From Escherichia coli (lineage in GTDB: Bacteria > Pseudomonadota > Gammaproteobacteria > Enterobacterales > Enterobacteriaceae), in assembly GCF_002854065.1 (NCBI RefSeq), contig NZ_CP024147.1: a stretch of 64,000 bases of DNA. One strand, written 5' to 3'. Both the position numbers and the translations under genes were made by a program. Shown here one piece after another: positions 7,373-46,066 of the stretch (position 1 is the stretch's first letter; every line of letters starts with the position of its first letter). The notes under the pieces were generated by a model, which saw nothing but the letters and a program-made list of their open reading frames with translations, made no database searches and was not told where the DNA came from.

Positions 7373-7459
7373 AAATCCCGACCCTGAGGGGGTCGGGATG
7401 AAACTTGCTTAAGCAAGAAGCACTTAAAAAATTCGTTACACCAGGAAATCTGATGTGTT
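7373..7459 (-). ncRNA. dsrA: DsrA small regulatory RNA (Hfq-dependent; activates rpoS translation, represses hns)
   Basis: Reverse complement reads AACACATCAGATTTCCTGGTGTAACGAATTTTTTAAGTGCTTCTTGCTTAAGCAAGTTTCATCCCGACCCCCTCAGGGTCGGGATTT, matching DsrA as I recall it, including the terminal GC hairpin plus U-tract. Confidence 0.9.
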
Positions 7460-14531: not shown

Positions 14532-15227
14532 TCAGCCCGCGGGTGAAAACGCATCTATCACCTTGTGATCGACACCTTCATTCTCCCCCGCCAGTTCGGC
14601 ACTGAGCTTCGCCATAAACTCGACTAAAAAATGCGCGTTGTGCTGCGCCAGCTGCTTGCCTCTTACGGTTTGCATGGTTTGCGGTAGCTTCAGCAACTTA
14701 GTCTGGAAATGATCCAGCGCGTAACGTTTATCATCAAGCGGGCGATGCTGTGCGAGCGGATCTTCGGCATCAAACAGCGCCACGCCCAATGCCCCTGAAA
14801 CGGCAAACACACGTGCCAGGCCAATCGCCCCCAGGGCTTCCAGCCGATCCGCATCCTGGACAATTTTAGCTTCCGTGGTTAAGGGGGCGATTTGCGCGCT
14901 GAAACTGTGAGCGGCAATGGCATGACAAACGGCCTCAATTTTCTCCGCCGGAAATTGCACGAACTCTTCACGGAGCAGGCGACGCGTCTCTTCTGCCGCC
15001 AGGATTGAAGAACGCTGCCGTTGCGGATGATTTTTCGCCAGGCTCACAATATCGTGGAAATAACAGGCTGTTAAAATCACCAGCATATCGACATCGTCAT
15101 CTGCCGCCAGCTTCTGTGCCGTAGCCCAGACGCGGCGAAAATGACACACGTCATGAGCCGCGTCCTGGTGCTGATGATGGTTTTTCAACCAGTTTTCGAA
15201 CTGTGCCTGCCAGTGTTGTAAGTCCAT
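14532..15227 (-). CDS. yedJ: HD-domain phosphohydrolase YedJ
   Basis: 231 aa ORF with an HD motif region, syntenic with dcm. Confidence 0.85.
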
Positions 15228-15266
15228 ACGCGCTCCGTTGCCAAAGAGTCGCCACCTTAGCAGTTT

Positions 15267-15650
15267 TTATTCATAGCGTCTGCTACGTGCGGGACGAGGT
15301 CGGGTGTACCAGGCAATGCTGCCTAACAATGCCCCGACCAGAGCCATAAATAAAAATCCGACCAGTGCCCCTAACCACTTTTCCGCGGTAGAGCCTAAAT
15401 CGCTTTCAAATCCCGACACGGGGGCATCGGGGATCCGGCTAATCACCCAGATGTAACGCGCCATTGCCCAGACGAAATAGCCACACCATGTATAGAAAGC
15501 CCACAAAGCCAGTTTGCCGCCAGGGCTGCGAGAGAGTCTCTCTTCCATCTTTGTCGAACCGTATTCCATTTTGAGATAACCCGGAAAATTCAGACTAAGC
15601 ACTATTATGTGATAAAAGTCACATTTTTCCACATTGAATGAGCCAGTCAA
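15267..15650 (-). CDS. yedR: Inner membrane protein YedR
   Basis: 127 aa ORF with two transmembrane helices; the exact start is uncertain (internal Met possible). Confidence 0.7.
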   Translation of the reverse strand: MTGSFNVEKCDFYHIIVLSLNFPGYLKMEYGSTKMEERLSRSPGGKLALWAFYTWCGYFVWAMARYIWVISRIPDAPVSGFESDLGSTAEKWLGALVGFLFMALVGALLGSIAWYTRPRPARSRRYE

Positions 15651-15860
15651 GACTCAATCATTTTTTGAACAAATAGATAAATTTTGCGCAACGGCAGTGA
15701 ATACAGGAAAAATCGTTTTGAGCGATTTTATTTATCTTTGATATCGGCTTTATTAATTCATTCAATCAATATATTAGCACTGATTACAATTATACCTTTT
15801 TATTATTCTGTGTCATGATGCCTCCGTTATTAGCCTTTTATCGTCTTGTTTATATTTTTT

Positions 15861-15890
15861 GGGCCGGCATGATGCCGGCTTTTTTTTATG
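15861..15890 (+). terminator. Orphan intrinsic-terminator-like hairpin (GGGCCGGCATGATGCCGGC plus T8)
   Basis: Perfect GC-rich stem followed by TTTTTTTT on the plus strand; no plus-strand gene is annotated upstream. Confidence 0.4.
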
Positions 15891-16199
15891 CCTTCATTAA
15901 TGTGCGCGTGATCACACCAGCCGTTTAGCGCATCAATCATTGATACCCCCTATCTTTCCGCTCAACTCATAACATATTGATATGCATTTATAATTTTCAT
16001 GAATATTTATATTTAGAATTCATAATTATGAATTATATTAAATAGATTAGAAACATTTTGAAATCTTTTAAATATATTTGTTACATGTAGTCCTTAAAAT
16101 AAAATGAACTTCATAGAATAGTATCCAAATGTGCTTTTTTTTTGGATAACGGCACTTATTGATATATTCATGAAGATTATAATCACAAGGGAATACATA

Positions 16200-17273
16200 A
16201 TGAAAAGAAAAGTTCTGGCAATGCTGGTCCCGGCGTTATTAGTTGCTGGCGCAGCAAATGCGGCTGAAATTTATAATAAAGATGGCAATAAAGTTGATTT
16301 CTACGGCAAGATGGTTGGCGAACGCATCTGGTCAAATACTGATGATAATAACAGCGAAAACGAAGATACCTCCTATGCTCGTTTCGGTGTTAAAGGTGAA
16401 ACCCAAATCACCAGCGAACTGACTGGTTTTGGTCAGTTTGAATACAACCTCGACGCCAGCAAGCCCGAAGGTGAAAACCAAGAAAAAACCCGTTTAACCT
16501 TCGCCGGTTTGAAATATAACGAGTTAGGATCATTTGACTATGGCCGTAACTACGGTGTTGCTTATGATGCCGCAGCTTATACCGATATGTTAGTTGAATG
16601 GGGTGGCGATTCCTGGGCTTCCGCTGACAACTTCATGAATGGTCGTACCAACGGTGTTGCAACCTACCGTAACTATGATTTCTTTGGCCTGGTTGATGGT
16701 CTTGATTTTGCGATTCAGTACCAAGGCAAAAACAGCAACCGTAGCACTAAGAAACAAAATGGTGACGGCTATGCGTTGTCTGTAGACTATAACATCAATG
16801 GTTTTGGTATCGTTGGTGCATATAGCAAATCTGATCGTACTAATGAACAAGCTAGTGACGGCTACGGTGATAACGCTGAAGTGTGGTCATTAGCAGCCAA
16901 GTATGATGCAAATAATATCTATGCAGCAATGATGTACGGTGAAACCCGCAACATGACCGTTTTGGCTAATGATCATTTTGCAAATAAAACCCAAAACTTT
17001 GAAGCTGTTGTACAGTATCAGTTCGACTTCGGTTTACGTCCGTCTTTAGGCTACGTATATTCCAAAGGCAAAGATCTTTATGCTCGTGATGGACATAAAG
17101 GTGTTGATGCTGACCGCGTAAATTATATCGAAGTTGGTACCTGGTACTACTTCAATAAGAACATGAACGTCTACACAGCATACAAATTCAACATGCTGGA
17201 TAAAGATGACGCCGCCATTACTGGCGCAGCAGCTGATGACCAGTTTGCAGTTGGTATCGTCTACCAGTTCTAA
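16200..17273 (+). CDS. yedS: OmpC/OmpF-family general porin, apparently intact YedS
   Basis: 358 aa from [21 protein letters not shown] (signal peptide), then [16 protein letters not shown]… and C-terminal …VGIVYQF typical of enterobacterial porins; SD AAGGGA upstream. Confidence 0.85.
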
Positions 17274-25496: not shown

Positions 25497-25586
25497 TGGC
25501 GGAGAGAGGGGGATTTGAACCCCCGGTAGAGTTGCCCCTACTCCGGTTTTCGAGACCGGTCCGTTCAACCGCTCCGGCATCTCTCC
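25497..25586 (-). tRNA. serU: tRNA-Ser
   Basis: Reverse complement gives a 90-nt GGAGAGATGCCGGAGCGG…TTCAAATCCCCCTCTCTCCGCCA with long variable arm and encoded CCA. Confidence 0.9.
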
Positions 25587-26577: not shown

Positions 26578-26653
26578 TCCTCTGTAGTTCAGTCGGTAGA
26601 ACGGCGGACTGTTAATCCGTATGTCACTGGTTCGAGTCCAGTCAGAGGAGCCA
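26578..26653 (+). tRNA. asnT: tRNA-Asn
   Basis: 76-nt TCCTCTGTAGTTCAGTCGGTAGAACGGCGGACTGTTAATCCGTATGTCACTGGTTCGAGTCCAGTCAGAGGAGCCA; anticodon GTT. Confidence 0.95.
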
Positions 26654-41757: not shown

Positions 41758-41833
41758 TGGCTCCTCTGACTGGACTCGAACCAGTGACATACGGATTAAC
41801 AGTCCGCCGTTCTACCGACTGAACTACAGAGGA
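41758..41833 (-). tRNA. asnW: tRNA-Asn
   Basis: Reverse complement is identical to the 76-nt asnT sequence; TTGACA-17-TAATAT promoter on the minus strand at 41852-41880. Confidence 0.95.
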
Positions 41834-43581: not shown

Positions 43582-43657
43582 TCCTCTGTAGTTCAGTCGG
43601 TAGAACGGCGGACTGTTAATCCGTATGTCACTGGTTCGAGTCCAGTCAGAGGAGCCA
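43582..43657 (+). tRNA. asnU: tRNA-Asn
   Basis: 76-nt sequence identical to asnT. Confidence 0.95.
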
Positions 43658-45990: not shown

Positions 45991-46066
45991 TCCTCTGTAG
46001 TTCAGTCGGTAGAACGGCGGACTGTTAATCCGTATGTCACTGGTTCGAGTCCAGTCAGAGGAGCCA
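45991..46066 (+). tRNA. asnV: tRNA-Asn
   Basis: 76-nt sequence identical to asnT. Confidence 0.95.

Follow-up and report, generated by a model that had tools for sequence, protein, structure and literature searches.

The hairpin upstream of a yedS-type porin gene in Escherichia coli as the intrinsic terminator of the small RNA gene rseX

The AT-rich region between drpB (yedR) and a yedS-type porin gene in Escherichia coli contains a GC-rich hairpin followed by a run of T residues on the plus strand. We analyzed this feature within a stretch of 64,000 nucleotides (contig NZ_CP024147.1 of assembly GCF_002854065.1), hereafter the window. Our results make it very probable (roughly 97%) that the hairpin and T-run form the intrinsic terminator of rseX. 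This known gene, which stands on its own at positions 15797 to 15887 (+), encodes a 91-nt small RNA that acts in trans and depends on Hfq. The locus has already been annotated and published, so that no new gene is described here. The identity, boundaries, conservation, and synteny of rseX, together with its missing coding signatures, are established in the present analysis. The Hfq dependence of RseX, its targets, and its silencing by H-NS come from the K-12 literature and would apply to the strain studied here by analogy; we infer that rseX behaves in this strain much as it does in K-12.

A first-pass annotation of this DNA had described the hairpin and the plus-strand T8, and both are present (stem-loop core at 15863 to 15879; T8 at 15880 to 15887, after the hairpin). 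It had also called the terminator an orphan, a description that fails because the hairpin ends an annotated small RNA gene. Among the possibilities it raised was an unannotated small RNA. The small RNA is indeed there, but it is annotated as b4603 in K-12 and is represented by a dedicated Rfam family. What makes the hairpin seem an orphan is that PGAP annotation leaves rseX unlabelled: in all 30 PGAP-annotated genomes among the matches listed, no feature is given at rseX. Readers who work from sequence only will therefore go on flagging rseX as an orphan in E. coli genomes annotated in this way.

To assign the locus, we rely on an Rfam covariance-model scan of positions 15200 to 16400 and on alignment with K-12. 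The scan returned a full-length match to RF01401 (rseX Hfq binding RNA) at 15797 to 15886 on the plus strand, covering model positions 1 to 94 of 94, with a score of 99 bits (E = 3.6e-14) against a gathering score of 50 bits. The same match recurs when the whole window is scanned. Four sub-threshold matches (STnc430, RyhB, Esr41, and mmgR) were discarded; they align the terminator hairpin alone, with scores far under their cut-offs. At 15797 to 15887, the window shares 90 of 91 bases with the annotated rseX of K-12 MG1655 (b4603; NC_000913.3, 2033649-2033739). The sole difference, C in the window for T in K-12 at 15822, falls in the 5' stem-loop, within its loop; the terminators agree base for base. 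Across the locus, the alignment with K-12 reaches 98% over 221 nt. Gene order also agrees: the K-12 reference reads dcm (-), yedJ (-), drpB (-), the ncRNA gene rseX (+), the yedS pseudogene (+), and hchA (+), and the window likewise has drpB (-), rseX (+), and yedS (+), with rseX on the strand of yedS. The minus-strand placement of yedR in the first-pass annotation is confirmed, the gene being drpB.

It is the 99-bit covariance-model match that marks the feature as non-random, unlike the hairpin or an open reading frame (ORF) taken alone. A simple terminator scan of 15200 to 16400 found one terminator-like site, whereas shuffled sequences yield 0.9 +/- 1.0; the hairpin by itself is thus not statistically remarkable, as the site count equals chance expectation. 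Similarly, the fold of the whole RNA is not unusually stable (z = -1.03) and is uninformative, and the promoter scan, at its threshold, did not call a plus-strand promoter for rseX. None of these three results contradicts the identification.

The window holds other RNA genes. The gene for the small RNA DsrA lies at 7373 to 7459 (-), with a full-length match to RF00014 of 102.5 bits; it and rseX are approximately 8.4 kb apart, as they are in K-12. Four tRNA genes, scoring 72.6 bits each in Rfam, are found at 26578 to 26650 (+), 41761 to 41833 (-), 43582 to 43654 (+), and 45991 to 46063 (+); the genes occupy both strands within a 20-kb span, and their equal scores make it likely that all four are copies of a single tRNA. 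One longer tRNA gene is located at 25500 to 25586 (-).

The anatomy of RseX can be followed along the sequence. A hexamer at 15785 to 15790 (+), TACAAT, precedes the annotated 5' end by 6 nt and is taken here as the putative -10 element of rseX; the corresponding -35 element is poor (TTCAAT, with three of six consensus matches). For K-12 rseX, a sigma-70 promoter and a primary 5' end mapped by 5'-RACE have been described (Douchin 2006, as relayed by PMC8313858). The RNA begins with a U-rich 5' end, which is followed by a weak stem-loop, a near-invariant core, a U-rich stretch, and the terminator. According to the Rfam consensus structure and the minimum free energy fold, the stem-loop spans 15810 to 15834 (+). 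Its loop at 15820 to 15825 is the most variable part of RseX, corresponding to alignment columns 24 to 29, which vary among homologues. The core, CGUUAUUAGCCUUUUAUCGUC (15825-15845, +), is identical in 12 of 12 homologues save for one base in one sequence, a degree of constancy that makes it a candidate segment for target pairing and contact with Hfq. Directly 5' of the terminator, UUUAUAUUUUUU forms a U-rich single-stranded stretch of the kind expected at the terminators of Hfq-binding small RNAs. The Rho-independent terminator itself occupies 15861 to 15887 (+) and consists of a stem-loop (15861-15881) and a U8 tail (15880-15887). Its core, GCCGGCATGATGCCGGC, at 15863 to 15879 (GCCGGCA-UGA-UGCCGGC), has seven Watson-Crick pairs and a 3-nt loop; with two G-U pairs included, the stem comprises nine pairs over 15861 to 15881.

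We next consider how the locus is distributed. The window is chromosomal DNA of E. coli. The drpB-yedS intergenic region was matched in 4,901 of 5,426 complete E. coli genomes, leaving about 525 without a match; it is 100% identical to that of strain CUWW06 and 97.8% identical to that of a K-12 MG1655 assembly. Beyond these genomes, a single homologue scan, based on a pattern of the conserved core plus the terminator and run on contigs representing one genome per species, recovered seven loci: those of Escherichia albertii, Escherichia whittamii, three more Escherichia lineages, E. coli, and Citrobacter amalonaticus. All seven, as well as divergent E. coli strains, pass the RF01401 cut-off, with scores from 70.9 to 97.8 bits, and C. 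amalonaticus keeps the gene order yedJ-drpB-rseX-porin. Compared with the window, the Escherichia species are 67% identical upstream, 89% within rseX, and 79% downstream; in Citrobacter, the corresponding values are 47%, 76%, and 36%. Conservation peaks on the RNA and not on the ORF that crosses its terminator. All 12 homologues retain the terminator stem, and Citrobacter shows a single compensatory change, from G-C to A-U, at the base of the stem.

The presence of rseX is nevertheless uneven. Papenfort et al. could not detect RseX in Salmonella (PMC1804206), and its presence varies within E. coli and Shigella (PMC3318445). In E. coli EH10-18-47, an IS1 element (IS1A) stands between drpB and hchA in place of both rseX and the porin gene (L015 3501-4298), a loss consistent with this variable presence within E. 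coli/Shigella (PMC3318445). The drpB gene of the same strain is split into two coding sequences.

What is known of the function of RseX comes from K-12. First predicted computationally, the RNA was then recovered because, in multicopy, it suppresses the essentiality of rseP (PMC8313858). Its repression of ompA and ompC depends on Hfq, and fimB and ihfB are also bound and repressed by it (PMC8313858); repression of fepA is lost upon changes to the terminator loop (PMC11979758). The repression of ompA, ompC, fimB, ihfB, and fepA was seen on overexpression (PMC8313858, PMC11979758). Native RseX remained undetected for years, and species of approximately 91 nt and 75 nt appear only in hns mutants, with levels that climb further in hns stpA double mutants; H-NS and StpA silence RseX and its surroundings in K-12 (PMC8313858).

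Together with the sequence features described above, these reports suggest how rseX may work in the present strain. Transcription would start about 6 nt downstream of the TACAAT element and end at the GC hairpin and U8. The hairpin, its U tail, and the preceding U-rich stretch would act as the usual Hfq-binding 3' module, and the conserved single-stranded core may pair imperfectly with target mRNAs, leading to their repression, while repression of fepA would act via the terminator loop. The AT-rich DNA that carries rseX is presumably kept silent by H-NS and StpA, and for this reason the RNA would hardly be made under laboratory conditions. The composition of the locus agrees with the earlier description of a very AT-rich region: G+C content falls to 0.21-0.31 across approximately 15600 to 16200, compared with about 0.5 in the flanking genes, and the intergenic region that holds rseX (15570-16199) is at this low level over most of its length. 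The accompanying remark that such DNA is typical of silencing by H-NS fits the published silencing of RseX by H-NS and StpA (PMC8313858).

Other explanations have been proposed for the hairpin and for the short ORF that spans it. This ORF of 37 codons (15815-15928, +) is present, and its translation, MMPPLLAFYRLVYIFWAGMMPAFFYAFINVRVITPAV, is exactly that first reported. One could imagine a dual-function RNA, in which the rseX transcript also encodes this 37-residue hydrophobic peptide as a small membrane protein. Dual-function small RNAs do occur in E. coli, SgrS/SgrT and AzuCR being examples, and such precedents count for this reading, as do the ATG start, the hydrophobicity of the peptide, and an ORF that is intact in the window, CUWW06, O157:H7 FRIK804, and E. 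coli 20332 and that in K-12, where TGG replaces the TAG stop of the window, extends to 42 amino acids. Against it, anti-Shine-Dalgarno pairing upstream of both ATGs of the ORF reveals no Shine-Dalgarno sequence, the duplexes reaching -1.0 and -1.6 kcal/mol compared with -5.3 kcal/mol for the porin gene and -6.2 kcal/mol for hchA. The stop codon lies 41 nt past the 3' end of RseX, beyond the terminator, and the terminated RNA would consequently be a non-stop message. Nor are the frame, start, and stop conserved across the 14 homologous loci in which they were judged. Of seven E. coli strains sampled, three have a T7 tail instead of T8, and this indel at 15880 shifts the frame and yields unrelated C-termini within E. 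coli. Four other Escherichia lineages have a 1-nt deletion at 15855 that cuts the ORF to 18 codons, and in Citrobacter, ATT and ATC replace both ATGs and leave no start codon. Five further ORFs of 34 to 44 codons share the same 545 nt, making six in all; sequence conservation falls after the terminator; and our search of the literature combining RseX with small-protein or ribosome-profiling terms returned no report of such a peptide. Hence, the ORF is almost certainly accidental, a by-product of the sequence. The weak Shine-Dalgarno energies, the unconserved frame, start, and stop, and the overrun of the terminator lead us to reject a conventional small-protein gene, and a second, coding function of the rseX transcript is highly improbable.

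The terminator of rseX might instead serve its neighbors. In one reading, its main role would be insulation or attenuation of the porin gene, either blocking upstream read-through into yedS or forming part of a long regulated yedS leader, with the short transcript as a by-product. The terminator does lie 312 nt upstream of the porin start on the same strand, rseX and its porin neighbor remain linked in Escherichia as well as Citrobacter, and both are deleted together in EH10-18-47, with IS1 in their place. Yet the most conserved part of the intergenic region, 15811 to 15845, is upstream of the terminator, where a mere insulator would not need it, and RseX expressed alone in trans represses defined targets (PMC11979758, PMC8313858). 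Moreover, promoter-like sites for the porin gene are found downstream of the terminator, at 16012 to 16039 and 16078 to 16105, and a search for duplexes between RseX and yedS did no better than shuffled controls. We regard this reading as unlikely; the transcriptional insulator envisaged earlier survives only trivially, inasmuch as rseX transcripts end at the terminator before they reach the porin gene. A bidirectional terminator serving yedR (drpB), which had also been suggested, has a negligible chance of being correct. Proximity alone speaks for it. The drpB gene (15267-15569, -; placed by alignment of the K-12 annotation and the ORF list) is the divergent upstream neighbor and lies outside the small RNA. 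Its 3' end is at 15267, so the intergenic region is on its 5' side and the gene is transcribed away from the hairpin. After the hairpin, the minus strand reads CCAAAAAA; these bases past the stem, also given as CCAAAAAATAT, contain no T-run. Mapping has located the promoter of drpB far from the hairpin, in the interval from the old GTG-1 to ATG-22 (PMC7648144). The orientation of drpB and the missing minus-strand T-run likewise refute a terminator for a convergent gene. An intrinsic terminator ending rseX therefore remains our preferred explanation for the hairpin.

Annotations disagree about the start of drpB: K-12 RefSeq gives a protein of 100 amino acids (start at 15569), PGAP gives 93 amino acids in CUWW06 (start at 15548), and the longest ORF encodes 127 amino acids from a TTG at 15650 (15267-15650, -). 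Published work supports the 100-amino-acid form, with the start at ATG-22 and the promoter inside the old 5' extension (PMC7648144). Positions 15789 to 15816 on the minus strand closely resemble a consensus sigma-70 promoter facing drpB (ATGACA-16 nt-TATAAT; 11 of 12 matches). This site overlaps the putative -10 element of rseX and the first 20 nt of RseX, and all 12 rseX homologues share its -35 half without change (TGTCAT as read on the plus strand). We rejected this site (15816 to 15789) as the promoter of drpB, given that the mapped one lies elsewhere (PMC7648144); it might give rise to a divergent or an interfering RNA.

The porin gene downstream of rseX deserves separate consideration. 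In the window it is an intact yedS-type gene for 357 amino acids (16200-17273, +; from the ORF list), and CUWW06, which shares the intergenic region of the window base for base, has it annotated as "porin". In contrast, yedS is frameshifted in O157:H7 FRIK804 and FDAARGOS_403, and K-12, where RseX was studied, has a yedS pseudogene only. With an intact yedS-type porin gene beside rseX, the present strain is better suited than K-12 to questions about the natural expression of RseX and its co-regulation with the porin. RNAduplex pairs RseX with the translation-initiation region of yedS at -30.4 kcal/mol, whereas dinucleotide shuffles of RseX give -25.5 +/- 3.4 kcal/mol; by this method, which ignores accessibility, 49 of 500 shuffles and 80 of 500 random window segments equal the observed value. 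Regulation of yedS by pairing at this region is thus unsupported, as the score falls within those of the controls. A more speculative idea, doubtful at present, is that RseX and the YedS-type porin form a single "porin-swap" cassette silenced by H-NS. It is still tenable given the conserved linkage of rseX to the porin gene, the joint deletion in EH10-18-47, and the AT-rich block that both share. If it were true, lifting the silencing would allow RseX to lower OmpC and OmpA while an intact alternative porin is produced.

RseX can be compared with other small RNAs linked to outer membrane proteins. MicF, which adjoins ompC, and MicC, which adjoins ompN, are likewise short, Hfq-dependent, porin-linked RNAs with a Rho-independent terminator, and all three repress mRNAs of major outer membrane proteins. 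MicF and MicC have no sequence relationship to RseX, however, and their arrangement is divergent, whereas rseX is in tandem with and upstream of its porin gene. Unlike MicF and MicC, RseX has its native expression silenced by H-NS/StpA, with no inducing signal known (PMC8313858). With SdsR and ArrS, RseX shares an unusual way of repressing fepA, which requires the terminator loop and apparently no pairing (PMC11979758); the terminator loop of RseX in the window is identical to that of K-12, the one tied to this effect. SdsR and ArrS differ from RseX in having unrelated sequences and other primary targets. The closest counterpart is RseX of K-12 itself (b4603; RF01401), which has the same drpB-rseX-yedS locus, the same length, and an identical terminator. 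It differs in the one loop substitution at 15822 and in its neighbor, a yedS pseudogene in K-12 and an intact porin gene in the present strain.
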